A stretch of 64,000 nucleotides of DNA from Candidatus Omnitrophota bacterium (GTDB lineage Bacteria; Omnitrophota; Gorgyraeia; Gygaellales; Profunditerraquicolaceae). The stretch covers positions 8,619 through 72,618 of the forward strand of contig JAUYBI010000015.1 in NCBI GenBank assembly GCA_030693145.1, in the 5' to 3' direction. Positions 14,284 through 62,005 of this stretch are shown piece by piece. The first letter of the stretch is position 1, and the number at the start of each line of letters is the position of its first letter. The position numbers were made by a program, and so were the translations under genes. Under the pieces are notes generated by a model. The model was not told the origin of the DNA and did not search any database. It saw only the letters and a program-made list of their open reading frames with translations.

Positions 14284-15543
14284 GTGATTAAACGCAGGGT
14301 AGTGATTACCGGCATTGGGGTAATTTCGCCTAATGGCATCGGTAAAAAGAATGCCTGGGAAGGTTTTGCCGGCGGAAAATCCGGGGTACGTTTAGTTGAT
14401 GGTTTTGATGTCTCAGTATTTAATACTAAAATTGCCGCGGAGGTGCGCGATTTTGATCCTTTTAAATTAGGCTTAAGCCATGAAGAAGCCATGCGCATGG
14501 ATCGCTATGTGCAATTTGGCGTAGCTGCCGGTAAAATGGCAGTGGAAGACAGTAAGTTGGACTTTTCTCAAGAAGATGTTCAGCGCATCGGCGTTTGTTT
14601 AGCTAATGCTATCTGCGGGACCAAATATATGGAAGAAGAGTTTGCTTTGGTTACTGACGACGGGAAAAAACCCATAGATCCGAGTTTAGTGCGGCCGGAT
14701 TTATATGATGCGGCAATGTTTAATACTCCGTCAATTGAAATCAGCGCGCGTTTCGGCTTAAAAGGAAGTTGTAATACTATTTCCACCGGATGCACCGCAG
14801 GCACGGATTCCTTAGGTTTTGGCCTGGAAAGTATTCAGGATGGGTCGTTGGATGTGATGATTTGCGGAGCAGCCGAAGCGCCGCTTACTCCGATTACCTT
14901 TGGCGCTTTTGACGTGGTAAATGTCTTATCAGTGCATAATGATGAGCCGCAAAAAGCATCGCGCCCCTTTGATAATAAAAGGGATGGGTTTGTTTTAGGA
15001 GAGGGGGCCGGGATACTGGTGCTGGAGGAATTAAATCACGCCTTAAAGCGGAATGCCCCGATTTATTGCGAGATTTTGGGTTTCGGCACCAGTTGTAATG
15101 CTTTTCATATGACGGATCTTCCTTCTGATGGACGGGCAATGGAGACCTGTATTGCCCTGGCCTTAAAAGATGCGCAGGTTAAACCCTCTGAAATTGATTA
15201 TATCAACGCGCATGGCTCAAGTACGCGGATGAATGATATTTTTGAAAGTAATGCTTATAAAGCGATTTTTGACGAAGCTGCCTATCAGCTGCCTATCAGT
15301 TCATTTAAATCTATGATCGGCCACCCTCTGGCTGCGGCTAATGCTATTGAGATGACGATTGCCGCGATGATTTTTGAGAAAAATATTCTTCCTCCGACGA
15401 TAAACCAAGAGGAAAAAGACCCGCAGTGTGACCTGTATTATATTCCCAATGAAGCGATACAGAAAAAAGTAAATATTATTTTAAAAACCAGCAGTGGTTT
15501 TTCAGGGATACACTCTTCGCTGGTTTTGAAACGATTTAAATAA
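14284..15543 (+). CDS. Beta-ketoacyl synthase (FabF/KS-alpha-like), catalytic Cys-His-His present
   Basis: VVITGIGVISPNG. Active-site ISTGCTAGTD. Conserved His residues at HGSSTRMND and SMIGHPLAAA. The track start (14248, TTG) lies inside the palindromic repeat. The GTG at 14284 gives MIKRRVVITG. Confidence 0.85.
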   Translation: MIKRRVVITGIGVISPNGIGKKNAWEGFAGGKSGVRLVDGFDVSVFNTKIAAEVRDFDPFKLGLSHEEAMRMDRYVQFGVAAGKMAVEDSKLDFSQEDVQRIGVCLANAICGTKYMEEEFALVTDDGKKPIDPSLVRPDLYDAAMFNTPSIEISARFGLKGSCNTISTGCTAGTDSLGFGLESIQDGSLDVMICGAAEAPLTPITFGAFDVVNVLSVHNDEPQKASRPFDNKRDGFVLGEGAGILVLEELNHALKRNAPIYCEILGFGTSCNAFHMTDLPSDGRAMETCIALALKDAQVKPSEIDYINAHGSSTRMNDIFESNAYKAIFDEAAYQLPISSFKSMIGHPLAAANAIEMTIAAMIFEKNILPPTINQEEKDPQCDLYYIPNEAIQKKVNIILKTSSGFSGIHSSLVLKRFK

Positions 15544-15611
15544 AGGGGACGGTTCTATTTTTTATAGAGCCTGTTTGATAAAAAAATAGAACCGTCCCCG
15601 GGATTTTAACT
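15543..15611. repeat. HpB hairpin with GGGATTTTAACT tail between the KS and CLF-like genes
   Basis: AAAGGGGACGGTTCTATTTTTT..AAAAAATAGAACCGTCCCC-GGGATTTT, ending at the ATG. Confidence 0.8.
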
Positions 15612-18347: not shown

Positions 18348-18352
18348 AATTA

Positions 18353-18430
18353 AATCAAGGGGACGGTTCTATTTTTCCGTCGCCCAACTGGTTTGAAAAA
18401 CAGAACCGTCCCCATGTTTTAAAACGGAGG
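18353..18430. repeat. HpB hairpin plus the conserved ATGTTTTAAAACGGAGG RBS module upstream of the ACP gene
   Basis: AATCAAGGGGACGGTTCTATTTTTCCGTCGC...CAGAACCGTCCCC-ATGTTTTAAAACGGAGGATAAATG. Confidence 0.8.
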
Positions 18431-19541: not shown

Positions 19542-19548
19542 AATTAAA

Positions 19549-19626
19549 AATCAAGGGGACGGTTCTGTTTTTCCGTCGCTTAATCTAATTGAAAAATAGA
19601 ACCGTCCCCATGTTTTAAAACGGAGG
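19549..19626. repeat. HpB hairpin plus the ATGTTTTAAAACGGAGG module upstream of the SRPBCC gene
   Basis: About 85% identical to the 18353 copy, including the loop TTTTTCCGTCGC. Confidence 0.8.
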
Positions 19627-22025: not shown

Positions 22026-22445
22026 ATGAATAATCAGGATATTAAGAATTTAAAGAAGCGTTATTTTATCTGGCTCTATAAAGCCGCCAAAGAAACCTTT
22101 GATAAATACGAGCGTAAGTTTACGCAAGTGGATATTGATAAGGATATCCTGGAAGAGATGGAGAAAGAGCTTTTAGGCTCCTATCTTCCTCATGAAAAAG
22201 ACGCCCTGCAAATGCAGATCAACGATTTTCAAAAATATATCGAGAATAAAGAAAAGTCTTGTTCAGAATTCAGGGATCAGCATAAAAAGATCAATCCGGA
22301 TTTTATTTTCTCAGAGATAAAACTGAATGCTATTGAGAAAGTAATTGTTAAGGGGTTAGGCAAAAGAGGCTTAGAGGAAATAAAATCCCTTTATGAAAAA
22401 GAAATGACTGAACGCATCTTAAAGAATACGGAGCTTTCCCGGTAA
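22026..22445 (+). CDS. Hypothetical helical protein
   Basis: 139-aa ORF inside the operon. Lys/Glu-rich with no recognisable motif. Confidence 0.4.
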   Translation: MNNQDIKNLKKRYFIWLYKAAKETFDKYERKFTQVDIDKDILEEMEKELLGSYLPHEKDALQMQINDFQKYIENKEKSCSEFRDQHKKINPDFIFSEIKLNAIEKVIVKGLGKRGLEEIKSLYEKEMTERILKNTELSR

Positions 22446-23356
22446 TGTTAATTGACGCGCATAGCCATTGGCTGCCGGAAGAAATAATTACTAATGCCCA
22501 TTTTTTTCATAAAGGATGGGGTGAGATTGAGGTGCAGCTTAAGGTTATGGATGAGGCAGGAATTGACCGGGCAGTCTTAAGTTATCCCACAACAGACGCG
22601 CATTTAAAGTTAGGCAGTATCAGCCAAGTAGCGCATATTTATAATGATAATGTTGCCAAGATTTTAAAAGCTTATCCGGAAAGATTTATCGGTGCGGCGG
22701 TTTTACCGGTAGATAATTCTTATGATATGCTGGAAGAGCTAAAGCGGGCAATCAATGAGTTAGGTTTTAAGGCAATTTCCCTTGCCTCAAGTTATAACGG
22801 TATATATTTGGATGACAAGATGTTTTTACCTATATATAAAGAAGCACAAGAAAAGGATATCCCGATCTTTGTGCATGCGCAAATTGTGAACCCGATAGGT
22901 TTTGAGCGGGTTAAGGATCCTCTGCTTACCCCGGTAGTGGAATATGTTTTTGATACTACGATTTCAATCGGCAAGCTTTTAATGTCGGATATTCTACGGC
23001 AGTATCCTAAGGTAAAATTTATTTTCGCCCATTTTGGCGGGGCAATCTGCTATCTAAAGCAGCGCTTTGACGCCACTTATCAGATGCTGCGGGAGATGAA
23101 CTTTGTTAAAGACTTACAGGGGCTTCCTTCAGATTATTTTAAGAATATCTACGTCGATACCAGCGGCGATACGACTAAGGCGAATTTCCTGCTTGCTCTT
23201 GAACTCATGGGCCCAGAACATATTTTGTGGGGCTCTGACTGGCCAGCTAAAAAAGATATGGCCAGTGGTATTAAAGCTGTCAATGATTTGGATATATCTG
23301 GAGAGGATAAACAAAATATCTTGGGTAGTAATTTAGAGAAGATATTCGCTCTTTAG
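22445..23356 (+). CDS. Amidohydrolase-2 family protein (ACMSD/decarboxylase/hydratase-like TIM-barrel metalloenzyme)
   Basis: MLIDAHSHWLPEE N-terminal metal-binding motif typical of Amidohydro_2. The start overlaps the upstream stop (TAATG). Confidence 0.65.
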   Translation: MLIDAHSHWLPEEIITNAHFFHKGWGEIEVQLKVMDEAGIDRAVLSYPTTDAHLKLGSISQVAHIYNDNVAKILKAYPERFIGAAVLPVDNSYDMLEELKRAINELGFKAISLASSYNGIYLDDKMFLPIYKEAQEKDIPIFVHAQIVNPIGFERVKDPLLTPVVEYVFDTTISIGKLLMSDILRQYPKVKFIFAHFGGAICYLKQRFDATYQMLREMNFVKDLQGLPSDYFKNIYVDTSGDTTKANFLLALELMGPEHILWGSDWPAKKDMASGIKAVNDLDISGEDKQNILGSNLEKIFAL

Positions 23357-23462
23357 CAATTTTTGCGGGTCCCCGCCACTAAATCGTTGGCGGGCAGGCT
23401 GTCTTGGGTATTTTCTAGCGCTGACGCGCGTCGAAAACACCCAAGCCACCCGCAAAATAGAC
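23357..23462. repeat. GC-rich palindromic element, family D (TTTTTGCGGGT..CTTGGGTATTTTC..GAAAACACCCAAG..ACCCGCAAAA) with an internal 26-bp hairpin insert. Left boundary of the AT-rich islet
   Basis: Near-reverse-complement of the 28745 element. About 65% GC in a ~42% GC background. Confidence 0.7.
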
Positions 23463-23528
23463 AAATTAATAGACTCTCAGAGTTAGTGAAAATAGAAACG
23501 GTCCCATTATTTTCTCAAGGAGGGGGCG

Positions 23529-24191
23529 ATGGAAAAAGAAACATTAGCGCTGATTCAGGTAATATCAGAGAATTCATCGTTCAAAGAATCTATTCTAAAA
23601 ACATTATTAGTAGCAATTTTAAGTGGTACAGCAGTATATTATGTTCCTAGATTGTTCAAGTTGATTAAACACCGCAGTAAACCGATTCTAACTTATCATT
23701 TTAATGGAGATACTTATTTAGAGTTAGATAAAATAAGACATTCTTTTGGGAAGAAAACGGTGGATAAGGGTGCGTCTAATGGTAAAGCGTGGGAACATAC
23801 AACGGATCAGATAGATGGAGGAGCAACTACCTGTTATGGGCCATACACCAAAGAGATACCTTTTCGAGGGAAATATAAAGCAAGATTTCGAATAAAACTC
23901 TGCGGAATAAAAGACAATAATTCCCATATTATAACTTTAGATGTTGCTTATGGGAAGTTAAGTGCAGATGAAACTAAGATGCAATTAGGGTTGCTTAAAA
24001 CCGAGAGACACTTGAGAACTGCAGATTTTATTGATGGTAAATATAAAGATTTTGATGTCGAATTCGAATACGACGGAGAATCATTGGTAGAATTTAGATG
24101 TTCAGTGCTTAGTCCTTTTAATTTTACAAATAGAGTTAGCCGAATATTTTTTGATAATGTAAAAGTATTTTTGGTATCAGAATTAATTTAG
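23529..24191 (+). CDS. Hypothetical single-TM protein, AT-rich, function unknown
   Basis: 220 aa. N-terminal TM helix (LLVAILSGTAVYYV) and a soluble domain with no recognisable motif. Flanked by degenerate inverted half-copies of the GGACGGTTCT hairpin family. RBS aaggaggg. Confidence 0.5.
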   Translation: MEKETLALIQVISENSSFKESILKTLLVAILSGTAVYYVPRLFKLIKHRSKPILTYHFNGDTYLELDKIRHSFGKKTVDKGASNGKAWEHTTDQIDGGATTCYGPYTKEIPFRGKYKARFRIKLCGIKDNNSHIITLDVAYGKLSADETKMQLGLLKTERHLRTADFIDGKYKDFDVEFEYDGESLVEFRCSVLSPFNFTNRVSRIFFDNVKVFLVSELI

Positions 24192-24205
24192 TTTCTGTAA
24201 TAAAA

Positions 24206-24856
24206 GTGACCGTTTCTATTTTTTTCAAGGAGATTTTAAAAGAAATGACCAAATATGAAAAATGCGATCTTATAATTGCTGCTGTAGCTGCTTTTTTTAC
24301 AACTACGGCTATAATCTGGGTTTTATTTAAAGAAACAATACTGGCTCGCTGGAGAGCGCCAAAATTACAAAGTCTTATTAATATGGATATGCCTTATGTA
24401 ACAAAACAAGGGAGAACTTATTATTATCATTTAGGGATTAAGAATATTGGTAGGGCGACTGCTCAAAATTGTCGTGGTTATGTCGACAGAATTTATGAAT
24501 ATAATAATGGACAATATGAAAGAATAAAGAATTTTATGCCTATGCCGTTATATTGGGCTAGAGAAGAGAAGTCAGCCACATTCATTGGGCCAGACCAGGA
24601 GAAATTCCTGGATTTGGGTACTATTGACACAGATTGTTCATATGCTGTAGGTAAGCGCCCATTTGTATTATGGTTTAGAGAATATAGTGATACCAGCCGG
24701 CTTTTCCTGGGTAGATATAAGATTAGGATTATTTTATATTCCGAAAATACAGAAAGTTTACCTGTAGAATTATATATTAGTTGGAGTGGTCAGGCTAAAG
24801 AAGAATATATGGATATGCTGAAAGAATTAATAATAAGTAAAGAATTAATAAAATAA
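24206..24856 (+). CDS. Hypothetical single-TM protein, AT-rich, function unknown
   Basis: 216 aa. N-terminal TM helix (LIIAAVAAFFTTTAIIWVLF) and a soluble domain rich in Tyr/Arg. No recognisable motif. Confidence 0.5.
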   Translation: MTVSIFFKEILKEMTKYEKCDLIIAAVAAFFTTTAIIWVLFKETILARWRAPKLQSLINMDMPYVTKQGRTYYYHLGIKNIGRATAQNCRGYVDRIYEYNNGQYERIKNFMPMPLYWAREEKSATFIGPDQEKFLDLGTIDTDCSYAVGKRPFVLWFREYSDTSRLFLGRYKIRIILYSENTESLPVELYISWSGQAKEEYMDMLKELIISKELIK

Positions 24857-24865
24857 GGTAGGGAT

Positions 24866-24955
24866 ATATTTTAGCGGGTGACACGGAGGCGGGTCCCCTG
24901 CCGCGCGCAACGCAAGTGAGCACGGTAGGGTGCCGCAGTGGCAGGACGCGCGTAA
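24866..24955. repeat. GC-rich structured element (TTTTAGCGGGTG...CGCGCG) directly upstream of crcB
   Basis: About 70% GC with multiple complementary GC-rich blocks. It does not fit the fluoride riboswitch consensus by eye. Confidence 0.55.
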
Positions 24956-24960
24956 GTATT

Positions 24961-25335
24961 ATGATGAAATTATTGAACTTGATTATTGGGGGAGCGGTAG
25001 GGACAGTTGCCAGGTATTTTTTAGCCGGCGTTGTTTACAGGTTTATGGGTGCTGGGTTCCCTTATGGTACATTAATTGTAAATATCAGCGGCTGTTTTAT
25101 CCTGGGTTTTTTAGCTGCTTTATCGGATAAGAAATTTATTCTTGGGCCGGATGCGCGCCTATTGTTGATGATTGGTTTTTGCGGGGCTTTTACCACATTC
25201 TCAACCTTGATCTTTGAGTCTGATAGCTTAGTTAGAAATGGCCAGGCAATCCGTGCTTTTACTAATATCTTTGCCAGCGTAATTTTAGGCTTTATATTAT
25301 TTAGAGTAGGCAGTTTATTAGGAGAGATAATATGA
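24961..25335 (+). CDS. crcB: Fluoride ion channel CrcB/FluC
   Basis: 124 aa from the ATG at 24961 (MMKLLNLIIGGAVGTVARY..., GFCGAFTTFSTL). Four TM helices typical of the Fluc family. The upstream part of the track ORF translates a GC-rich structured element. Confidence 0.8.
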   Translation: MMKLLNLIIGGAVGTVARYFLAGVVYRFMGAGFPYGTLIVNISGCFILGFLAALSDKKFILGPDARLLLMIGFCGAFTTFSTLIFESDSLVRNGQAIRAFTNIFASVILGFILFRVGSLLGEII

Positions 25336-25661
25336 AAATTCCCGCGGATGGAAAACTTTTGCGTATTTTTATTGGTGAAGCAGACAAATGGAATGGCAAG
25401 CCACTTTATGAAGAGATTGTGTTTTTAGCCAAGAAAAACGGTTTAGCTGGAGCAACGGCAATTAAAGGGTTTATGGGGTTTGGCTGTAAAAGCCATATGC
25501 ATACGGCTAATTTACTGCGGCTTTCCGAGGACCTGCCGGTGGTTATTGAAATCGTGGATAGCGAAGAAAAAATCAATCAATTTATTCCCCAACTGGATAG
25601 CATGGTTAAGGAAGGATTGGTTACTCTTGAAAAGGCAAACGTGATTATGTACCGGGCTTAA
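25332..25661 (+). CDS. DUF190-family small protein (commonly paired with crcB)
   Basis: 109 aa. LLRIFIGEADKWNGKPLYE ... GATAIKGFMGFG resembles DUF190. Start overlaps the crcB stop (ATGA). Confidence 0.6.
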   Translation: MKIPADGKLLRIFIGEADKWNGKPLYEEIVFLAKKNGLAGATAIKGFMGFGCKSHMHTANLLRLSEDLPVVIEIVDSEEKINQFIPQLDSMVKEGLVTLEKANVIMYRA

Positions 25662-25744
25662 TTTAAGAAAAAACGAGCGGGAAGATATGAGCTTGACAAT
25701 GTTCTCAGATATGATACAATTGTTCTCAAAGGGAGAACAGTAAG

Positions 25745-26323
25745 ATGCTCAGTGCGTTAATATCGTCTGGCTCGCGAAGAAAAATCCTGACTCAATTTTT
25801 GTCTCATCCGGATGAGAAATACTATGTCCGGCAGTTAGCGGTTATTCTTGGAGTATCAGTGGGAACAATTCATCGTGAGCTTATTCGGCTGCAGGGCAGC
25901 GGTATATTAAATTCGGATAACGTAGGTAATTTAAGGTTTTTCCGCGTAAATAAAGCGTCGCCGGTTTTTAAAGAATTAAAACAGATTATCTTTAAAACCG
26001 AGGGTGTCCAGGGCAGGCTTAAAGCAAAGTTAAAAGACCTAAAAGGGCTTAAAACCAGCTTTATTTATGGATCATTTGCCAAGAGAGAAGAAAACGCGCA
26101 TAGCGATATTGATCTTTTTCTCTTAGGTGATATTTCCGAAGATGAGTTAATTCAAAGAATAAGTGCTTTGGAGGGAGAGTTTGACAGGGAAATAAATTTT
26201 ACAATTTATACGGTTTCTGATTTTAAGAAAGAGATGAAAAGAGGTGGCTCTTTTCTAAGAGATGTAATTAAGAACCCGAAGATTTTTTTGGTTGGTAGTA
26301 TGGATGTGTTGAATGGATTATAA
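25745..26323 (+). CDS. Winged-HTH plus minimal nucleotidyltransferase (MNT) protein
   Basis: N-terminal ArsR-like HTH (YVRQLAVILGVSVGTIHRELIRL). NTase motif GSFAKREENAHSDIDLFLLGD (GS..DxD). Confidence 0.65.
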   Translation: MLSALISSGSRRKILTQFLSHPDEKYYVRQLAVILGVSVGTIHRELIRLQGSGILNSDNVGNLRFFRVNKASPVFKELKQIIFKTEGVQGRLKAKLKDLKGLKTSFIYGSFAKREENAHSDIDLFLLGDISEDELIQRISALEGEFDREINFTIYTVSDFKKEMKRGGSFLRDVIKNPKIFLVGSMDVLNGL

Positions 26324-26780
26324 TAAATTTATTGAAGATTATTTATCCCGTGGTTTAATTAAAAAACAGCCTGTTGGTTTTGATCAGATAAATAGTTTTA
26401 TAACACAATCAAAGCAGGAATTAAAAGATTGTAATAATATATTGGATATAAGCGCGAAAATCGCCTATTCATCGGCGTATACGGCAATGCTTTACGCGGC
26501 GCGGGCGTTGATGTTACTTGCCGGGTATCGGCCGGCGGGAGTTAATCAGCATAAGACAGTAATTGAATTTGTTGGCGTATGCGCGGGGGATGAATATAGA
26601 GATTTGATTAAGAAGTTTGACGTGATGCGTAAGAAAAGAAATTTACTTATGTATGAACCTTGGGAGGTTAATGTGTCTCCTGCCGATTCTAGAAATGCGG
26701 TAAATACTGCCGCGGAGTTTATCGAGTTTATCATAGTTAAGATTAAGAAAGATAATCCGCAGGATGAATTTGAGTTTTAG
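26313..26780 (+). CDS. HEPN-domain protein (partner of the upstream MNT)
   Basis: 155 aa, overlapping the MNT gene by 11 nt. HEPN-like helical region AKIAYSSAYTAMLYAARALMLLAGYRP. Confidence 0.6.
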   Translation: MDYNKFIEDYLSRGLIKKQPVGFDQINSFITQSKQELKDCNNILDISAKIAYSSAYTAMLYAARALMLLAGYRPAGVNQHKTVIEFVGVCAGDEYRDLIKKFDVMRKKRNLLMYEPWEVNVSPADSRNAVNTAAEFIEFIIVKIKKDNPQDEFEF

Positions 26781-26892
26781 CTTTTCGTAAATAAAAGTTT
26801 ATTTAGAAGTAATGGGGTCAGAATTATTTGTTGACGGAAAAATGAGAGTGGGTAGTAGGTACTAGAGATAATTAACAGAAAGGTAAAATAAG

Positions 26893-27058
26893 ATGCAAAT
26901 GCAAAAAACGTTCATTTAACTGGAAAAGATCTGACGGAGATGGTGCAGCTTCGGAGGCAGGATGTGGGCAAGTACGCGATTGTGCCTGGGCCGCGCGACC
27001 GTTTGGATGTATTAATGAAAAAAATTGAGAATCCGGTGCGTAATTTTTCATTTATGAA
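26893..27058 (+). pseudogene. Degenerate 5' fragment (about 56 codons, frameshifted) duplicating the start of the phosphorylase gene at 27992
   Basis: About 90% nucleotide identity to 27992-28157 (agatgcaaatgcaaaa...taatttttcatttatg). A 1-nt deletion near codon 5 breaks the frame. It ends at a half copy of the GGGGACGGTTCT hairpin. Confidence 0.6.
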
Positions 27059-27078
27059 ATAAAGGGGACGGTTCTATT

Positions 27079-27165
27079 TAGCGGGTGGCGAGGCTTGGAC
27101 TCGAGCAGCATCTCAAAAATTCGAGCGGGCACGGTCCCGCCAAGACTCTTGGCGGGGAGCGAGAA
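27079..27165. repeat. GC-rich structured element (TTTAGCGGGTGGCGAGGCTTGG...CCAAGACTCTTGGCGGGGAGCG) upstream of the Phd/Doc module
   Basis: Complementary arms are read directly. It directly follows a half HpB repeat. Confidence 0.55.
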
Positions 27166-27199
27166 TTAGATAAAATATTTCGTTTGACTGAAGATATTT

Positions 27200-27262
27200 T
27201 TATGTTAACCTAATGGTGTATGGTTAACATATGTTAACTAAGATAACATTGGTTAACAAGAG
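27200..27262. promoter_or_regulatory. Four GTTAAC-centred half-sites forming two inverted repeats, a candidate operator for the HTH antitoxin, directly upstream of the Phd/Doc module
   Basis: GTTAAC at 27204, 27223, 27233 and 27252. The central pair forms the perfect 16-bp palindrome GTTAACATATGTTAAC. Confidence 0.5.
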
Positions 27263-27267
27263 GAGAT

Positions 27268-27534
27268 ATGATGCAAAGTAAAGAGAATGAATATGTTACG
27301 ATACCTGAATTGGCAAAGATACTTGGTTTAAGCAGGATCGCTGTTTTTAAAAAGGTAAAGAAAGGCGAGATTAAGGCCATTAAGATAGGAAAAACCTACG
27401 GAATTTCCAGAAAGCACGTAGAAAGCCTATTAGGGAAGGTTTTGGGCGAAGATGAGAAGAAAGAAATTGACCTGGCGGTAAAAAGAACTGTTAGCGAATA
27501 CGGCCAAACATTGAAGCTTTTGGGTAAAGATTAG
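27268..27534 (+). CDS. HTH DNA-binding protein (excisionase/MerR-like HTH), putative antitoxin partner of Doc
   Basis: 88 aa. VTIPELAKILGLSRIAVFKKVKKGEIKAIKIG helix-turn-helix. Its stop overlaps the doc start. Confidence 0.55.
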   Translation: MMQSKENEYVTIPELAKILGLSRIAVFKKVKKGEIKAIKIGKTYGISRKHVESLLGKVLGEDEKKEIDLAVKRTVSEYGQTLKLLGKD

Positions 27535-27956
27535 TGAAGAAACTCACGGTTAAAGAAGTTGAATATATTGCTTTTAAGTTAGCGCAGGAGTTGTTATCTT
27601 TTAAGGAGCCGATACCCGATTTTGCTACGCGTTATCCCAATATTTTGGAGAGTTGTCTGGCGACGCCATTCCAATCTTTTGGCGGGAAGTCAGGTTACCC
27701 CTCATTTATTGATAAGGCGAGCATTCTGTTTTATCTATTGATTAAAAATCACCCTTTTCAAAATGGTAATAAGAGAGTTGCCATGACAACGCTGTTGGTA
27801 TTTTTGCATAAAAATAAAAAATGGCTTAAAGCTGACACACAGGAATTCTATAATTTTACAATGTGGATAGCCCAAAGCTCGGCAAAATATAAAGAAGAAA
27901 CAATAAAAGCAATTCAGAAGTTTTTAAAAGCAAGCATAGTTGAGTTAATAACGTAA
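27534..27956 (+). CDS. doc: Doc (death-on-curing) toxin, Fic fold
   Basis: 140 aa. HPFQNGNKRVAMTTLLVFL carries the Fic/Doc motif HxFx(D/N)GNKR. Confidence 0.8.
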   Translation: MKKLTVKEVEYIAFKLAQELLSFKEPIPDFATRYPNILESCLATPFQSFGGKSGYPSFIDKASILFYLLIKNHPFQNGNKRVAMTTLLVFLHKNKKWLKADTQEFYNFTMWIAQSSAKYKEETIKAIQKFLKASIVELIT

Positions 27957-27991
27957 GCGAATTAATTAACTATTAAAAGGGAGAATAAAAG

Positions 27992-28741
27992 ATGCAGATG
28001 CAGAAGGATGTTCATTTAACCGGAAGAGATTTAACGGAGATGGTGCAGCTTCGGAGGCAGGATGTGGGTAAATACGCGATTGTGCCCGGGCCGCGCGACC
28101 GGCTGGATGTATTAATGAAGAAAATAGAAAATCCTGTACGTAATTTTTCATTTATGGAATATACCATGTATACCGGTACGTATGAAGGGATCAAGGTTAC
28201 CGGAATTAACGGCGGAAGATTTTCCACGGATACTTCGATTACTACGGAGGTAATGTGTAATGCCGGAATACAAAATATTATCCGCATCGGCACAGCCGGC
28301 TCGCTTGATGAAGATATTAAGGTCGGCGATTTATTTGTGGTAGATGAGGTTATCCGCGGAGATGGGGTAACTCCTTATTATGTAGATAAGGATTTTAAAA
28401 CAGTCAGCGATAAAAAAATCTCCGACCTTCTTTTTGAGATTGCCAAAGGTATGGGGTTAAATGTGCATCGCGGCAAGGCCTGGACCACGGATGCGCTTTT
28501 GCGCGAAACCCGCGAAATTGTCGAAGCCAAGCGTAAAGAAGGAGCAAGGGCAGTGGATATGGTATCTTCAACCCTATTAACTATTTGTCAGACATATAAT
28601 ATTAAGGCGGGATCGATATTAGCCGTAAGTGACAACGTGATTACCGGCGAGATGGGTTTTATGAACCCACTTTATTATCTGGCAGAAAGTAACTTAATCA
28701 AAATCGCGTTGGAGTTAGTGAAGAAATTGGAAGGAAAATAG
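27992..28741 (+). CDS. PNP/UDP-family nucleoside phosphorylase (uridine-phosphorylase-like; possible 5'-deoxyadenosine/MTA phosphorylase)
   Basis: 249 aa. DVHLTGRDL...YAIVPGPRDRLD aligns with the uridine phosphorylase N-terminus (DVFHLGLTK..LAIVPGDPDRV). Also RIGTAGSL. Confidence 0.7.
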   Translation: MQMQKDVHLTGRDLTEMVQLRRQDVGKYAIVPGPRDRLDVLMKKIENPVRNFSFMEYTMYTGTYEGIKVTGINGGRFSTDTSITTEVMCNAGIQNIIRIGTAGSLDEDIKVGDLFVVDEVIRGDGVTPYYVDKDFKTVSDKKISDLLFEIAKGMGLNVHRGKAWTTDALLRETREIVEAKRKEGARAVDMVSSTLLTICQTYNIKAGSILAVSDNVITGEMGFMNPLYYLAESNLIKIALELVKKLEGK

Positions 28742-28744
28742 AAT

Positions 28745-28818
28745 TTTTGCGGGTGGCTTGGGTGTTTTCGTAGCGCGTCAGCGCAAGAAAATACCCAAGA
28801 CAGGACCCGCAAAAAAAG
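28745..28818. repeat. GC-rich palindromic element, family D (TTTTTGCGGGTGGCTTGGGTGTTTTCG-TAGCGCGTCAGCGC-AAGAAAATACCCAAGACAGGACCCGCAAAAA), right boundary of the islet
   Basis: Imperfect 27-bp arms read directly. Lies between the phosphorylase and the MtnA-like gene. Confidence 0.7.
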
Positions 28819-28825
28819 GACGGAC

Positions 28826-29740
28826 ATGAAATTCTCTCCATTATTTTGGCCGATACAATTAAAAGGTAACGTTATTTATATTTTGGATGAGACCCAACTT
28901 CCTCAAAAGCTCGTCTACATAAAGGCGAAGAACTATCTTCAGGCCTGCGCGGCAATTAAACAGATGAAAACCCGCGCCGTGGGGCAGGTGCTCTTGGTAA
29001 TGTATACTTTTCTTTTAAGCAAGCGGCAGAACAAAAATTTAGCCAAAGTTGCCGCAGCGATTAATGCCACGCGGCCGACCTTGTCTTTTAAATTTTTAAC
29101 GGAGATGGTTTTAGGCTGGGAAAAAAGCGGGATGCCATTTGAGAAAAGTATTTTGGGTTTCCTGGAGATGCTTAAAGCCAAGCGTATCGAGCAGGCCGGA
29201 GAGATGGCTAAATTGCTTAAAGACGGCGAAGTGGTCCTTACGCACTGTAATATCAGCGGCCTGATGCCTTTAATTGCCCAGTTTGCTTTAGAGCAGGGCA
29301 AAAAAATAAGTTTCTATGTTACGGAGACGCGGCCATATTTGCAAGGGTCGCGCCTTACTGCCTGGGAAATTATGCGCGCGGGTTTTGAGGTAACCATCAT
29401 TACCGATAATATGGTGGCGTATTTATTATCTTTAGGTAAAGTAACTAAAGTTATCGTCGGAGCAGACCACTTAACCTTAAACGGGGACATCGCCAATAAA
29501 ATCGGCACTTATCAGATGGCGATAGTTGCCAGGTATTTTAAGATCCCTTTTTATGTAATTTGTCCGCCGGCATCGAAATTAAAAAGCGGAAAAGAAATTA
29601 AAATTGAAATCCGTCCGGGCAATGAATTAAAGATTTATCAAGGGCTGCATTTAGCGCCCAAAGAGGTTAAAGCGTATTATCCGGCTTTTGATGTTACGCC
29701 GAATAAGCTTATTACTAAACACATTTATTTAGGGGTGTAA
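28826..29740 (+). CDS. eIF-2B-family sugar-phosphate isomerase (MtnA-like methylthioribose-1-P / 5-deoxyribose-1-P isomerase)
   Basis: 304 aa. N-terminal ILDETQLPQK. C-terminal VGADHLTLNGDIANKIGTYQMAIVARYFKIPFYVICP matches the MtnA/eIF2B C-terminal signature. Confidence 0.7.
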   Translation: MKFSPLFWPIQLKGNVIYILDETQLPQKLVYIKAKNYLQACAAIKQMKTRAVGQVLLVMYTFLLSKRQNKNLAKVAAAINATRPTLSFKFLTEMVLGWEKSGMPFEKSILGFLEMLKAKRIEQAGEMAKLLKDGEVVLTHCNISGLMPLIAQFALEQGKKISFYVTETRPYLQGSRLTAWEIMRAGFEVTIITDNMVAYLLSLGKVTKVIVGADHLTLNGDIANKIGTYQMAIVARYFKIPFYVICPPASKLKSGKEIKIEIRPGNELKIYQGLHLAPKEVKAYYPAFDVTPNKLITKHIYLGV

Positions 29741-29755
29741 AATAGAGGTGTAGAT

Positions 29756-30751
29756 ATGTCTGAACATGAATTAAGGCTGGAGATAATTAAGGTTGGTAAG
29801 CGGCTTTATACTGCCGGCCTGGCCGTAGCTAAATCCGGAAATTTAAGCGCGCGCCTGGATAACGAGAATATTCTCATTACTGCCACCGGGGCAGCTTTAG
29901 GCCAGTTAAAAGAAAGCGACATCGTTAAGGTTAATTTAGCCAGCGGTAAATCCGAGGCAGGGCCAAACCCCAGCTCTGAGCTGCCTTTGCACAGTTTAGT
30001 CTATAAAAATTTTACGGCTCAGGCGGTAATTCATTGCCACCCTCCTTTAATTAACGGATATTTCGCGGTTACCAAGACACTCAAAGCGATGAGTTTTGAA
30101 ACTAAATTTTATCTCGGGGATATTCCGGTAATTCCCCAGGAAACGCCGACGGTGACGGCTCCGGCGCCGGTGATTGCCGCTTTAAAAACAAATAATCTGG
30201 TTATTCTCAAGAATCACGGGACAGTGGCGATTGCCGATAAGTTCCAAGAAGCGCTTAATATTACTGAAGCATTAGAGGAGGCAGTTAAAAGTGCTGCCAT
30301 TGCCCGCCTGTTTGATAAAAACATCCTGGATGATTTAGACCTGGCTTTAAAAGAGGATTTAAAGCGTAATGATCCGGCCTATACCATGTTTAGCCGTCAG
30401 CATATTCAGGCAATCGTGGATTTAGTTAATCAGGATGAATTTATCGCTCAAAAAGGGAAAGAGTTAGATTTAACTGTAAAATTAGCGATTAAACTTGACG
30501 ATAGCGGAGAGGTTTTTAAATTTAATTTTGAAAAAGGGAAAATCATAAAATTAGATACGGATAGCGATGCCCCTTTTGTCATTTCTGCGCCGGCGTCAGT
30601 CTGGGAGCAGGTATTTTTAGGTAAGTTGGATTCGTTTGTAGCGGTTACCCAGGGCAAGATGAAATTAAGCGGCCAATTAGGCCAGCTTTCTAAATGGTAT
30701 GTTCCATTTAACCGGCTTTTCGCTTTATTTAAAGAGGTGAAGGTCAAATGA
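29756..30751 (+). CDS. Class II aldolase/adducin-family protein with a C-terminal SCP2-like extension
   Basis: N-terminal 200 aa: SGNLSAR, AVIHCHPP (His ligands) and NHGTVAIA. C-terminal 120 aa: MKLSGQLGQL, resembling the SCP2 sterol-carrier fold. Confidence 0.7.
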   Translation: MSEHELRLEIIKVGKRLYTAGLAVAKSGNLSARLDNENILITATGAALGQLKESDIVKVNLASGKSEAGPNPSSELPLHSLVYKNFTAQAVIHCHPPLINGYFAVTKTLKAMSFETKFYLGDIPVIPQETPTVTAPAPVIAALKTNNLVILKNHGTVAIADKFQEALNITEALEEAVKSAAIARLFDKNILDDLDLALKEDLKRNDPAYTMFSRQHIQAIVDLVNQDEFIAQKGKELDLTVKLAIKLDDSGEVFKFNFEKGKIIKLDTDSDAPFVISAPASVWEQVFLGKLDSFVAVTQGKMKLSGQLGQLSKWYVPFNRLFALFKEVKVK

Positions 30752-32235
30752 ATTTAAAATGCCCGCTTTATATAAACGGCCAATTTATCGAAACCCCGGA
30801 AAAACAGAATATTGTTAATCCTTCCACCGGCAAAGTAATTGCCGAGGCTTCACTGGCTTCGATAAAAGAGGCAGAGTTGGCTTTATCCGCTGCCCGGGAG
30901 GCTTTTGACTATGGGCCGTGGACGCAATTTTCTTTGTTTGAACGCAAGGAATTTATCTCTAAGCTTGCCCAGGGTATTTTGGATAATGCCGGGATGCTCG
31001 CGGCGCTAGAAACGCAGAATACCGGTAAGCCTATTAAAGAGACTACTTTTATGGATATTCCTTCCAGCGCCAAAACATTTGAATTTATGGCGAATAATTT
31101 TATTGATTATTTGGATAATGAGAAGATTAACGTATCCGCGGACACAAAAGCAGAGTTAATCCGCGAGCCGATGGGGGTGGTAGTTTTAATTATTCCCTGG
31201 AATTATCCGCTTTTAATTGCCTGTTGGAAATTGGCTTCCGCCCTGGCTGCAGGCAATACGGTTATTCTGAAACCTTCCAGCCTTACTCCGCTTACTGCTT
31301 TGGAGCTGGCAAAAATTATCCAGCAGGCCGGTTTTCCTGCTGGAGTGGTGAATATAATTAATGGCAGCGGCGCAAAAATAGGCGAGACACTTTGCGCGGA
31401 TAAGCGCGTAGACATGATTTCTTTTACCGGAAGTAATGAAACAGGCAAACAGATTCTGCAATATTCTTCGAAAAATGTGAAGAAGACGATTATGGAGTTG
31501 GGTGGTAAATCTGCCAGCCTGATATTTAATGATGTGGATTTAGAGGTTGCGGTAAATAGCTCTTTGGCCTCTATTTTTCTAAATCAGGGCCAGATGTGCA
31601 CAGCGATGTCCAGGATTTTCGTACAAGAGGAGATTTACGATAATTTTCTGGCCAGTTTTGCCGAAAAGGCTAAACGCATAAAATTAGGTTTAGCCGATAA
31701 TCCTGAAACCCAGATGGGCCCCTTGATTAGCGACGCGCAGCGTAAAAGAGTAATTGCCTATATTGATAAGGCTAGAGCTGAAGGAGGGCGGGTAGTCTGC
31801 GGCGGGAAAATACCGGAAAACGCGGAATTGATCAATGGCTATTTCTTTGAGCCCACAGTATTAGTGGATGTGAGCACGCATTCGCACATATTTAAAGAAG
31901 AGGTTTTTGGCCCGGTAGTTTTGATGCATAAGTTTTCCGGATCGGATGAGGCGGCAAGTTTAGCCAACAGCGTGGATTTTGGTTTGGCCTGTTGCATCTG
32001 GAGTAAGGATCTACTTCTAGCGCAGGAGTTAGCCGGTAAGATAAATGCCGGCACGGTTTGGATTAATACTTATGGCATGTTTTACAATGAGCTTGCTTAT
32101 GGCGGATTCAAGCAGAGCGGTTTTGGCAAGGAGTTAGGGCGTGAAGGGTTTCTGGAGTATGTCCGTTTTAAGAATGTAATTGTAGATCAGTCGCCCGAAG
32201 GCAAACCGCTGGTTAATTACTGGTATGGATTTTAA
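30748..32235 (+). CDS. NAD(P)-dependent aldehyde dehydrogenase
   Basis: 495 aa. ELGGKSASLIF and the catalytic-Cys motif GQMCTAMSRIFVQE. Start overlaps the upstream stop (ATGA). Confidence 0.85.
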   Translation: MNLKCPLYINGQFIETPEKQNIVNPSTGKVIAEASLASIKEAELALSAAREAFDYGPWTQFSLFERKEFISKLAQGILDNAGMLAALETQNTGKPIKETTFMDIPSSAKTFEFMANNFIDYLDNEKINVSADTKAELIREPMGVVVLIIPWNYPLLIACWKLASALAAGNTVILKPSSLTPLTALELAKIIQQAGFPAGVVNIINGSGAKIGETLCADKRVDMISFTGSNETGKQILQYSSKNVKKTIMELGGKSASLIFNDVDLEVAVNSSLASIFLNQGQMCTAMSRIFVQEEIYDNFLASFAEKAKRIKLGLADNPETQMGPLISDAQRKRVIAYIDKARAEGGRVVCGGKIPENAELINGYFFEPTVLVDVSTHSHIFKEEVFGPVVLMHKFSGSDEAASLANSVDFGLACCIWSKDLLLAQELAGKINAGTVWINTYGMFYNELAYGGFKQSGFGKELGREGFLEYVRFKNVIVDQSPEGKPLVNYWYGF

Positions 32236-42417: not shown

Positions 42418-42520
42418 GTAGGGGAGGTTTAAACCTCCCCTACTATTAAAGGCTCGCTTTAAACCTCCCCTACTATTAAAGGCTCGCTTTAAACCTCCCC
42501 TACTATTAAAGGCTCGCTTT
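42418..42520. repeat. PalA G-variant followed by a 3x tandem array of a 30-bp unit (TTTAAACCTCCCCTACTATTAAAGGCTCGC) made from the PalA right half plus flank
   Basis: The three units, 42428-42457, 42458-42487 and 42488-42517, are identical. Confidence 0.85.
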
Positions 42521-42524
42521 AGAA

Positions 42525-42573
42525 TATAGGGGACGGTTCTGTTTTTTAAATAAAAAAATAGAACCGTCCCCTA
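42525..42573. repeat. HpB hairpin (ATAGGGGACGGTTCTGTTTTTT-AAATA-AAAAAATAGAACCGTCCCCTAT), perfect palindrome
   Basis: Read directly. Terminator-like, lying after comEC. Confidence 0.8.
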
Positions 42574-42630
42574 TATTTGCTTGATTTTACCTTTGACAAA
42601 GCCGTCCGGCTATGGTAAATTCATAATATT

Positions 42631-52747: not shown

Positions 52748-52762
52748 GGGGATTTAAAAAAA

Positions 52763-52815
52763 CAAGGGGACGGTTCTCTTATTTAAGAGAACCGTCCCCG
52801 GGATTTTAAAAATTC
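52763..52815. repeat. HpB hairpin with GGGATTTTAAAAATTCAGGAG tail upstream of secA
   Basis: CAAGGGGACGGTTCTCTTATTTAAGAGAACCGTCCCC-GGGATTTT. Confidence 0.8.
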
Positions 52816-61932: not shown

Positions 61933-61938
61933 AAAAAT

Positions 61939-62005
61939 AAGGGGGACGGTTCTATTTTTCCGCCTGGCTTCTGGGTAAAAATAGAACCGTCTCCATGTTT
62001 TAAAT
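61939..62005. repeat. HpB hairpin plus an ATGTTTTAAATTC tail downstream of the small Cys-rich gene
   Basis: AAGGGGGACGGTTCTATTTTTCCGCCTGGC..AAAAATAGAACCGTCTCC-ATGTTTTAAA. Confidence 0.75.

Follow-up and report, generated by a model that had tools for sequence, protein, structure and literature searches.

Known systems for comparison

When circular molecules recombined with the Escherichia coli chromosome by single crossovers, 109-950 bp of the homologous segment became duplicated (PMC3240628). Homology-facilitated illegitimate recombination is a documented process in transformable bacteria (de Vries & Wackernagel 2002; Prudhomme et al. 2002, both as cited in PMC5361080) and has been put forward for stacked effector-immunity arrays (PMC5361080). 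The latter, together with the orphan toxin arrays of T6SS and Rhs loci (Kirchberger et al. 2017, PMC5361080), are sites with a conserved anchor for which alternative cassettes compete, the newcomer displacing the old cassette and not deleting it, which results in arrays and gene remnants. Among toxin-antitoxin systems, P1 Phd/Doc combines a Doc toxin with the motif HxFx(D/N)(A/G)NKR, a small upstream antitoxin gene that overlaps the toxin start, and palindromic operators in the promoter.

We compared these systems with a locus of an uncultivated Candidatus Omnitrophota bacterium (contig JAUYBI010000015.1; the window is the whole stretch of 64,000 nucleotides analyzed). As in Campbell-type insertion-duplication, an insert lies between direct repeats of a homology segment, one truncated and the other rebuilding the gene; the size of the repeat falls within the range given for E. 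coli, and the repeats may be reciprocal donor/recipient mosaics, to judge from alleles that are only loosely linked to cassette type. However, the window holds a natural event between alleles that are about 10% diverged, and the circle that we infer would stem from an illegitimate end-join, not from a plasmid. With homology-facilitated illegitimate recombination the locus shares one junction in a conserved gene, one at microhomology, and foreign accessory genes beside a conserved anchor, but the classic result of that process is an insertion plus a deletion with no duplication of the anchor, and the swap of allele affinities described below is not predicted. Competition and displacement at a conserved anchor are shared with the T6SS and Rhs arrays, whereas here the cargo consists of type II/VII-like toxin-antitoxin pairs, the anchor is the start of a metabolic gene, and the remnant derives from the anchor gene itself. 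Finally, the motif, the overlapping gene order, and the palindromes (in the window a putative operator) are those of P1 Phd/Doc, but the antitoxin candidate is of the HTH_17/excisionase type, not Phd/YefM, and the putative operator is a GTTAAC array.

Other kinds of elements were considered and rejected: a transposon or IS target-site duplication (the repeat is about 190 bp long with allelic differences, there is no transposase domain, and relatives lack a flanking duplication), an integrase-mediated element with restoration of a gene end (there is no recombinase among the neighbors, and the 35-nt block identical in both copies varies among relatives), and an integron gene cassette (there is no integrase nearby, the GC-rich piece occurs in non-cassette contexts, and there is no Rfam match in the region).

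The duplicated gene start and the cassettes

A repeat search confirmed a frameshifted duplicate of the 5' end of the phosphorylase gene, about 90% identical, at 26893-27058, where the sequence-only reading had placed it (Table 1). The direct repeat as a whole pairs 26870-27061 with 27966-28161; the two are about 89-90% identical, apart from a 1-nt deletion, and 152 nt of them (26910-27061 versus 28010-28161) align ungapped at 90%. Counted from the ATG, the copies agree at 150 of 169 aligned bases, plus one 1-nt gap. Similarity extends about 23 nt 5' of each ATG, in the ribosome-binding region (26870-26892 versus 27966-27991), and ends at 27056-27061 and 28156-28161, that is, at codon 55/56. 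The missing base in codon 4 brings the upstream copy to a stop after 8 codons, and the only in-frame ORF left in this truncated copy is one of 40 amino acids (26940-27062). The 35-nt identical block differs at 2-10 positions among relatives and is for that reason no fixed attachment site.

Table 1. Features around the duplicated phosphorylase gene start (window coordinates)
Feature	Coordinates	Strand	Basis or remark
First toxin-antitoxin cassette, including conserved 25-nt tail	25692..26805	+	89-94% identical and colinear with L006, L008, L163-L166; 86% with L167
Promoter-like site	25693-25720	+	11/12 consensus positions
ArsR-HTH/nucleotidyltransferase (MNT) gene	25745-26323	+	Pfam Polbeta/NTP_transf_2 above cut-off
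HEPN gene	26313-26780	+	Pfam HEPN above cut-off
Window-specific spacer	26806..26868	.	In all fetched loci, no blastn-short hit beyond the window itself and its Logan copy L082
Upstream dead copy of phosphorylase gene start	26869..27056	+	Repeat search and alignments
Upstream copy, ribosome-binding-region part	26869-26892	+	Without GGAG
Upstream copy, codons 1-55	26893-27056	+	1-nt deletion in codon 4
Identical block of both copies, 35 nt; candidate crossover site	26934..26968 (partner 28034-28068)	+	Copy alignment
Left arm only of "HpB" terminator-like hairpin repeat	27057..27079	+	23/23 identical to 15538-15560
Truncated left part of ~190-nt GC-rich intergenic repeat (GCGGGTGGCGAGGCTTGG...)	27080..27177	+	92% identical to L018 5088-5161
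Cassette control region	27178..27267	+	Homology to all Doc-cassette relatives starts at 27178-27184
TTGACT	27184-27189	+	In control region
GTTAAC palindromes, four	27204, 27223, 27233, 27252	+	In control region
GAGGAG ribosome-binding site	within 27178..27267	+	In control region
Antitoxin candidate, 88-aa HTH_17/excisionase-type DNA-binding protein	27268..27534	+	PF12728 30.9 bits, TIGR01764 33.6 bits, both above cut-off
Predicted toxin of the Doc family (death-on-curing, Fic fold), 140 aa	27534..27956	+	PF02661 at 1.1e-12; start overlaps antitoxin stop
Intact phosphorylase gene with ribosome-binding site	27966..28741	+	PF01048 at 8.7e-34
Phosphorylase coding sequence, 249 aa	27992-28741	+	First 55 codons (27992-28156) are the downstream repeat copy

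The stretch between the repeats is 0.93 kb long and holds the Doc toxin gene pair, and the phosphorylase gene is intact because a complete gene start sits downstream of the cassette, both as had been read before. Its product has 83-98% amino acid identity over the full length to 80 Omnitrophota orthologues, and in all 80 of their loci MtnA-like and class II aldolase genes lie 3' of it (exact-protein look-ups with the phosphorylase and MtnA found no record). In an independent k=31 assembly of run SRR13727537, two contigs match the window at 100%: L082 corresponds to 25850-26963 and L001 to 26939-28063, the latter covering both the fragment-to-hairpin and the Doc-to-gene junction. Both contigs end inside the 35-nt identical block.

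The material between the copies had been taken for one cassette, but 27057-27177 is an unrelated hairpin/GC repeat remnant and the conserved cassette begins only at about 27178. The half HpB repeat noticed earlier is real: the right arm is absent here, while the full hairpin (15536-15602) folds with z = -5.9. The left arm provides the AAA TAA that ends the fragment ORF, and the microhomology at the illegitimate junction (27056/27057) is at most 4-5 nt. The element that follows, described as GC-rich and structured, kept only the first attribute, as the folding of 27050-27185 was no better than that of shuffled sequences (z = -0.8), a result that also led us to drop the idea that the insert contains a structured RNA or a site resembling attC. 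It is a truncated repeat, found whole in L018, where it runs on to ...CAAGACTCGACAGGACCCGC, with further matches in L016, L019, and L015. This repeat occurs in non-cassette contexts, e.g., upstream of crcB in L016 and L018, and it is not present upstream of the cassette in L003/L083, L168, L171, L175, and L016. At gathering thresholds, Rfam gave two tRNAs in the whole window, neither of them in the region.

The two genes of the insert had been called phd/doc. The toxin is indeed a Doc protein (TIGR01550 50.5 bits versus a cut-off of 38.65; motif HPFQNGNKR in the translated sequence; a match at 4.9e-7 to PDB 9vzc, named "Death-on-curing family protein"), but its partner is not Phd. Profile searches with the antitoxin candidate gave no Phd/YefM (PF02604) match, and a PDB search gave a weak LrpA HTH match only. 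Since the upstream gene matches HTH_17 and TIGR01764 only, the module is, as far as protein matches tell, a Doc system with a candidate antitoxin of another class than Phd. An HTH homologue is found directly 5' of Doc in 76 of 76 metagenome loci with room for one, in unrelated contexts. The GTTAAC array seen in the first reading holds up as a candidate operator, with two to four sites within 120 nt upstream of the HTH gene in 57 of the 71 homologous metagenome loci against a background of 0.14 per kb. The annotation is thus corrected to a Doc toxin with an excisionase-type HTH antitoxin candidate and a conserved GTTAAC array as putative operator. A literature search returned nothing specific on Doc paired with excisionase-type antitoxins. 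Neither a relative of the Doc protein nor a copy of the junction sequence turned up on viral contigs, and plasmids contained only distant Doc homologues (<36% identity) and no close relative of the cassette. The cassette itself lacks a transposase, an integrase, and terminal repeats.

In the first cassette, the MNT and HEPN genes overlap by 11 nt and form a minimal nucleotidyltransferase/HEPN pair, with an NCBIfam MntA match below the cut-off. At the position of the spacer that follows, relatives have either a 34-nt 3' remnant of DUF190 (L006 and L008) or nothing (L167). In L006 and L008, where the remnant lies between HEPN and the gene, none of 2000 shuffles scored as high; the corresponding candidate in the window, sought between HEPN and the upstream copy, was not significant (1932 of 2000 shuffles as high) and was discarded. 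The islet in which the site lies is variable, is bounded by a conserved amidohydrolase gene on one side and by the phosphorylase gene on the other, and has the features of an accessory/defense hotspot. In 68 loci these two genes are 11 to 2953 nt apart, against 4.6 kb in the window, and the contents of the gap include CrcB-DUF190, MNT-HEPN, HTH-Doc, SduA_C, Mrr_cat, AlbA_2, AbiJ_NTD4, GIY-YIG, and MazG. Shedu-, Mrr-, and AbiJ-like genes are found at the same site in other genomes, and in some loci cassettes abut the amidohydrolase region and CrcB-DUF190 is missing.

Two cassette haplotypes and swapped allele affinities

Related Candidatus Omnitrophota genomes have either MNT-HEPN (A-type) or HTH-Doc (B-type) directly 5' of an unduplicated phosphorylase gene, and the window has both pairs stacked with the gene fragment in between. 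It is colinear with A-type loci up to 26805, where homology to them ends, and with B-type loci from 27178. A-type loci without the duplication are L006, L008, L163-L166, and L167 (which has CrcB-DUF190 on the left, like the window); the B-type is represented by seven distinct loci (L003/L083/L171-L174, L015, L016, L168-L170, and L175). One sequencing run, SRR11548472, contains contigs of both types (L166 and L174). A second copy of the gene start was found in none of 80 species-representative loci, and no second example turned up among about 90 loci with this gene. The earlier proposal that insertion of the cassette produced a target duplication does not survive these seven B-type and 80 representative loci.

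The sequence-only reading had also taken 17 or more substitutions in the upstream copy as decay after an event that was not recent. We found that 14 of the 18 substitutions between the copies fall on third codon positions (binomial p = 1.4e-4) and that 14 of the 16 changed codons are synonymous. The only two amino acid replacements, N6 and K12, are seen in 12 and 69 of 79 orthologues, respectively, and every residue of the upstream copy is also seen in these 79. When duplication followed by pseudogene decay was simulated (4000 runs at each of four transition/transversion ratios), about 10-11 replacement codons were obtained, and two or fewer in 0 of 4000 runs at every ratio. Because the differences are mostly third-position and synonymous and the replacements are common orthologue states, the pattern indicates the divergence of two functional alleles before the event and not later decay; the apparent inactivating lesions of the upstream copy come down to the 1-nt deletion and the truncation. 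Before a partial gene copy that has diverged and lies beside an insert is taken for an old, decayed footprint, it should be checked for synonymous bias.

Overall identity to species representatives was uninformative for assigning the copies to parents (both are at most 90% identical to everything), and we used a segment-wise comparison with extra loci. From codon 14 on (positions 42-165), the alleles nearest to the upstream copy come from Doc-cassette genomes, with 4 mismatches to L168/L169, 10 to the L003 group, and at least 14 to all others, versus 11 to the downstream copy of the window itself. Of the diagnostic sites, 10/10 match the upstream copy in L168/L169 and 8/10 in the L003 group. 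The downstream copy, which is the one next to Doc, differs from Doc-genome alleles at 15 positions, and three of the five A-type alleles (L163, L165, and L167) match it at 7-8 of the 10 sites. Affinities are thus swapped, and over positions 78-165 the upstream copy differs from the B-type allele of L168 once and the copy next to Doc 11 times, in a comparison whose relatives are just 89-91% identical in the cassette and include no same-species parents. Some alleles break the pattern: L006 and L073 (both A-type) lean to the upstream copy at the right-hand sites, and L175 (B-type) leans to the downstream one. For positions 1-41 of the upstream copy, as for the spacer, there was no close match among the loci compared. 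Allele and cassette type are only loosely linked because, when the window is compared with its closest relative, identity is patchy everywhere, diverged patches alternating with stretches of up to 143 nt that match perfectly. A perfect 84-nt match of the upstream copy to L003 was downgraded as proof of a mosaic, since 3.3% of 84-nt segments are perfect between these genomes anyway.

Origin of the stacked arrangement

The gene fragment is best explained as a recombination scar where two cassette haplotypes of one hotspot were joined, and we put at about even the chance that this came about by way of a circle and a single crossover. The parents would be an A-type haplotype and a B-type haplotype with a diverged phosphorylase allele. 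A B-type piece of about 1.1 kb, running from the hairpin/GC repeat remnant through the promoter and the HTH and Doc genes to phosphorylase codons 1-55, would have been circularized by an illegitimate join of codon 55/56 to the left arm of the hairpin, and the scant microhomology at that junction is what such a join would be expected to leave. Integration of the circle into an A-type chromosome would have followed, through a single RecA-type homologous crossover located within the 35-nt identical block or immediately to its left. We infer the circle, the recipient genome, and the crossover position; Campbell-type insertion-duplication of this kind would double the homology segment, giving upstream a truncated copy (recipient 5' part, donor 3' part) and downstream a complete gene (donor 5' part, recipient remainder), and the upstream copy would have lost one base afterwards. 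A single crossover predicts the swapped affinities, i.e., an upstream copy that lies beside A-type DNA yet is nearest to B-type alleles. Counting against this reading, no circle or other carrier was seen, with no close relative of the cassette among viral contigs or plasmids, and the roughly 90 loci with this gene gave no second example.

Nearly as plausible, though less likely than not, is homology-facilitated illegitimate recombination of a linear fragment without any circle. Homologous exchange would have anchored the fragment on one side, in the phosphorylase operon downstream of codon 56 or else in the amidohydrolase region upstream, and its other end would have been joined illegitimately at codon 55/56 beside the hairpin arm. 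Each copy would then be the unmixed allele of a single parent, a different one for the upstream than for the downstream copy. This model, too, accounts for the junctions, for the synonymous character of the differences, and for the existence of the two parental haplotypes; one homologous and one microhomology junction are both found, as B-type homology runs on through the operon, and the hotspot has other illegitimate joints (the DUF190 remnant of L006/L008 and the cassettes abutting the amidohydrolase region). The swap is not among its predictions and would need an extra coincidental exchange within 165 nt, although pervasive patchy recombination could by chance yield a Doc-genome-like 3' part in the upstream copy. 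Tandem duplications with illegitimate novel joints are common, and a two-step origin would start from one of them: a B-type duplication of cassette plus gene start would create the 27056/27057 joint, and A-type DNA would then replace the left unit up to a point inside the first gene-start copy. This would likewise give the upstream copy a B-type 3' part, but we consider it quite unlikely, since it predicts that both copies share that part while 10 differences separate them over positions 78-147, requiring a third exchange, and no relative with a tandem cassette was found among the loci compared.

A chimeric contig of two coexisting strains was also weighed, as both haplotypes can co-occur in one sample and the identical block, where the k=31 contigs break, could mislead a short-k assembler. 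Such an artefact is very unlikely: with at most 5 nt shared, the fragment-to-hairpin junction cannot be a k-mer chimera, it is recovered in the independent contig L001, which also reaches the Doc-to-gene junction, and a frameshift to the left of the block together with a truncation to its right agrees with a single dead copy. The original model, in which the cassette inserted into the gene start with an in situ target duplication of about 190 bp followed by pseudogene decay, fits the direct repeats around the insert and the frameshift of the upstream copy. We regard it as highly improbable nonetheless, because of the substitution pattern, the same cassette at the same place without duplication in seven distinct relatives, the absence of transposase, integrase, and terminal repeats, and an upstream copy that is nearer to alleles of other genomes than to its neighbor. 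Integrative elements that restore a disrupted gene end do produce partial gene duplications of this sort, and the antitoxin is excisionase-like in fold. Yet an integrase-dependent element with an attachment site overlapping the gene start and a replacement 5' end of its own is the least probable of these explanations, as neither the insert nor the DNA next to it contains an integrase (the ORFs between 20 and 32 kb are all assigned otherwise), the 35-nt block is not conserved, and the excisionase-type protein is always paired with Doc, in 76 unrelated contexts.

Extending the circle model, it is conceivable but unlikely that toxin-antitoxin and other defense cassettes of these Omnitrophota spread from genome to genome as small nonreplicating circles with a "homing arm" made of roughly the first 55 phosphorylase codons, relying on host recombination only and always rebuilding the gene. 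If true, this would be an integrase-free system of cassette mobility that explains the hotspot, and the window would be the one case with the scar not yet removed. The understanding of recombination or of toxin-antitoxin biology is unchanged by the window, which is a tidy new example of a known process. What it offers is a base-pair view, in an uncultivated phylum, of how two alternative toxin-antitoxin cassettes competing for one hotspot can end up stacked, through recombination anchored in a conserved neighbor gene that is itself left intact.

The duplicated start of the phosphorylase gene

A repeat search of the window found an ungapped two-copy direct repeat (26910-27061 and 28010-28161, 152 nt, 90%), which gapped alignment lengthens to a left limit about 23 nt 5' of each ATG (26870 and 27966) and which ends at codon 55/56 (27056-27061 and 28156-28161). 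The upstream copy requires one 1-nt gap, at its codon 4, and 150/169 aligned bases are identical from the ATG on. The downstream copy is the 5' start of an intact PNP_UDP_1 phosphorylase gene (27992-28741, 249 aa; its NCBIfam matches are all under the equivalog cut-offs), and the upstream copy carries a frameshift and is cut short, with a single 40-aa ORF as its in-frame remainder. An independent k=31 assembly of run SRR13727537 contains two contigs that agree with the window at 100%, and the duplication described by the sequence-only reading is confirmed. The fragment-to-hairpin junction has at most 5 nt in common with the gene, and therefore a k-mer chimera is ruled out; an assembly chimera was rejected, the junction being free of common k-mers and present in the second assembly.

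Coordinates of the features in the window and in related loci
Feature	Position	Evidence or remarks
MNT-type nucleotidyltransferase and HEPN pair	25745-26323 / 26313-26780	domain matches
HTH_17/excisionase-type protein, 88 aa	27268-27534	domain matches
Doc toxin	27534-27956	TIGR01550 over cut-off; motif HPFQNGNKR; PDB Doc-family match
MtnA-like isomerase, then class II aldolase	3' of 28741	domain matches
Two ORFs (220 and 216 aa) between amidohydrolase gene and crcB	23529-24191 / 24206-24856	no Pfam match; missing from most related loci; relative of the first in L035 only
Spacer between MNT-HEPN cassette tail and upstream copy, 63 nt	26806-26868	no match in ~170 fetched loci
Terminator-like hairpin family, near-identical	98-137, 15538-15599, 18349-18413, 19548-19609, 42518-42578, 52752-52799, 61935-61991	GGGGACGGTTCTATTTTT...AAAAATAGAACCGTCCCC
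GC-rich composite hairpin repeat	28742-28815 and 23360-23455 (opposite orientation); L018 5088-5270; many loci 5' of the phosphorylase gene	conserved ends GCGGGTGGC...ACAGGACCCGC
Contig L082 (SRR13727537 assembly)	25850-26963	100%
Contig L001 (SRR13727537 assembly)	26939-28063	100%; includes fragment-to-hairpin and Doc-to-gene junctions

The stretch between the copies is a composite of several parts. The half hairpin repeat reported there is indeed a left arm alone (27057-27079), followed by the cut-off left part (27080-27177) of a ~190-nt GC-rich repeat that is whole in the related locus L018, 5' of crcB. This element had been called GC-rich and structured; the first holds, but on its own it folds no better than shuffles. 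The conserved cassette begins only at ~27178, with TTGACT and four GTTAAC palindromes, the latter in agreement with the operator array of the sequence-only reading. Of the supposed phd/doc genes, Doc is correct and Phd is not, since the protein 5' of Doc is of the HTH_17/excisionase type and the antitoxin candidate is therefore not Phd.

The full hairpin at 15536-15602 folds with z = -5.9, and the seven full hairpins in the window usually begin at, or take in, the stop codon of the gene before them; their arm is also present in other genomes (L009, L073, and L120). The GC-rich composite repeat, which is widespread between genes in these Omnitrophota, folds strongly (z = -8.0 and -4.9), and Rfam gave no match for it. 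In L018, L015, and the window, its immediate neighbor is a left arm from the other hairpin family.

The variable interval and two of its haplotypes

The phosphorylase protein search gave 80 loci from species-representative genomes (83-98% amino-acid identity), mostly labeled Candidatus Omnitrophota, with some labeled "uncultured Planctomycetales." In 80/80 the phosphorylase gene is followed by the MtnA-like gene and then the aldolase gene, and the gene start is duplicated in 0/80. The trio (27992-30751), whose class II aldolase bears a C-terminal SCP2 domain, resembles salvage of the DHAP-shunt type, for 5'-deoxy- and methylthio-nucleosides, rather than full methionine salvage. The same Amidohydro_2 gene (22445-23356 in the window) lies upstream in nearly all loci, at a distance from the phosphorylase of 11 to 2953 nt in 68 related genomes and of 4.6 kb in the window (23357-27991). 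This gap holds nothing in 20 loci, CrcB-DUF190 in 18, MNT-HEPN in L006, L008, and L073, HTH-Doc in L003, L015, and L016, and many singletons elsewhere, including SduA_C (Shedu), Mrr_cat, AlbA_2, AbiJ_NTD4, GIY-YIG, and MazG proteins. The interval is a variable accessory or defense hotspot.

Loci with MNT-HEPN directly upstream of the phosphorylase gene (A-type) include L163-L166 and L167 (CrcB-DUF190-MNT-HEPN-phosphorylase), the latter equal to the left side of the window with the gene intact. The MNT-HEPN insertion in L167 is clean, with the DUF190 stop on one side and the phosphorylase ribosome-binding site on the other. Those with HTH-Doc in that place (B-type) have the order amidohydrolase-HTH-Doc-phosphorylase (L168-L174) or CrcB-DUF190-HTH-Doc-phosphorylase (L175). 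A-type colinearity with the window runs as far as 26805 and B-type colinearity starts at 27178-27184; thus, two cassettes that elsewhere replace one another are stacked in the window, with the gene-start fragment at the seam. B-type L083/L171 are colinear with the window on either side of a 3.7-kb block (23512-27177) that is absent there. Logan contigs of the same locus with MNT-HEPN (L166) and with HTH-Doc (L174) both come from run SRR11548472, so the two parental types do encounter each other in the environment. In L006 (5948-5990), L008 (2884-2937), L163, L165, and L166, genomes whose locus is devoid of DUF190, a 34-nt piece of the DUF190 3' end, stop codon included, is left between HEPN and the phosphorylase gene; 0/2000 shuffles score as high, and this piece is a second recombination relic of the same hotspot.

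Across 80 metagenome loci with Doc 64-98% identical, an HTH homologue is directly 5' of Doc wherever the contig is long enough (76/76), and 57/71 carry two to four GTTAAC in the 120 nt upstream (elsewhere, 0.14 per kb). HTH-Doc is a widespread module with a conserved operator-like array, and the phosphorylase gene adjoins only the closest relative. The spacing GTTAAC-N13-GTTAAC-N4-GTTAAC-N13-GTTAAC (27204-27257) recurs with variations 5' of the HTH gene (L083-L162), in pairs of only 45-69% (HTH) and 64-79% (Doc) mutual identity, and its recurrence suggests that this HTH antitoxin family has an operator grammar that is conserved.

Divergence and affinities of the copies

The sequence-only reading took the 17 or more substitutions of the upstream copy as decay, and hence the event as not very recent, which the codons contradict. 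In codons 1-55, 14/18 substitutions fall on third positions (binomial p = 1.4e-4) and 14/16 changed codons are synonymous. The two replacements in the upstream copy, N6 and K12, are seen in 12/79 and 69/79 orthologues, and no residue of this copy is absent from the 79. In simulations of an in situ duplication, with one copy taking all mutations and the other synonymous ones only, ~10-11 replacement codons were expected, and two or fewer occurred in 0/4000 at each of four transition/transversion ratios. Therefore, both copies diverged while part of working genes, and lesions that postdate the event are limited to the 1-nt deletion and the truncation, with perhaps a weak ribosome-binding site.

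Over positions 42-165 from the ATG, the alleles nearest to the upstream copy are all B-type: L168/L169 (4 mismatches, 10/10 diagnostic sites) and the L003 group (10 mismatches, 8/10), with all remaining alleles at 14 mismatches or more. The Doc-adjoining downstream copy has 15 differences from these B-type alleles, and 3/5 A-type alleles agree with it at 7-8/10 sites. The affinities lean toward 3' parts swapped relative to the flanks and are not decisive, because the genomes are mutual patchwork mosaics (perfect runs up to 143 nt; 3.3% of 84-nt windows perfect), L006, L073, and L175 break the pattern, and nucleotides 1-41 of the upstream copy, like the spacer, have no close relative among the loci compared. 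Against the closest relative L003/L083, window 27183-31000 has ~90% identity, with perfect runs of 50-143 nt alternating with 80-87% patches, a patchiness which indicates that these lineages often exchange short tracts by homologous recombination.

Origin of the joint

The feature is very probably a joint where two functional but diverged alleles meet, and not an insertion footprint. The proposal that cassette insertion made the target duplication fails, as there is no recombinase and the other loci are without duplication; transposition or integrase-mediated insertion was rejected on these grounds and on the variation among relatives of the 35-nt block identical in both copies. Tandem duplication followed by replacement, also rejected, would give identical 3' parts, and 10 differing sites were found.

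Every model requires a single homologous exchange plus an illegitimate join at 27056/27057, and two variants fit. We give an even chance to a circular piece of B-type DNA (from the hairpin arm through Doc to codons 1-55) that would have entered an A-type chromosome via a single crossover, which predicts the swapped 3' parts. Single crossovers of circular molecules in E. coli gave duplications of 109-950 bp (PMC3240628), and unusually active lateral transfer has been reported for Omnitrophota (bioRxiv 10.64898/2026.05.20.726742); viral contigs and plasmids yielded no vehicle for the cassette. Linear homology-facilitated illegitimate recombination, with no circle, is the other variant and the somewhat less likely one; it predicts no swap, and the affinities lean toward one.

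The sequence-only reading described the feature well, and it is real and ordinary in kind. We read it as a recombination scar at a defense and toxin-antitoxin hotspot, together with a Doc module that has an excisionase-type HTH antitoxin candidate, known in kind.
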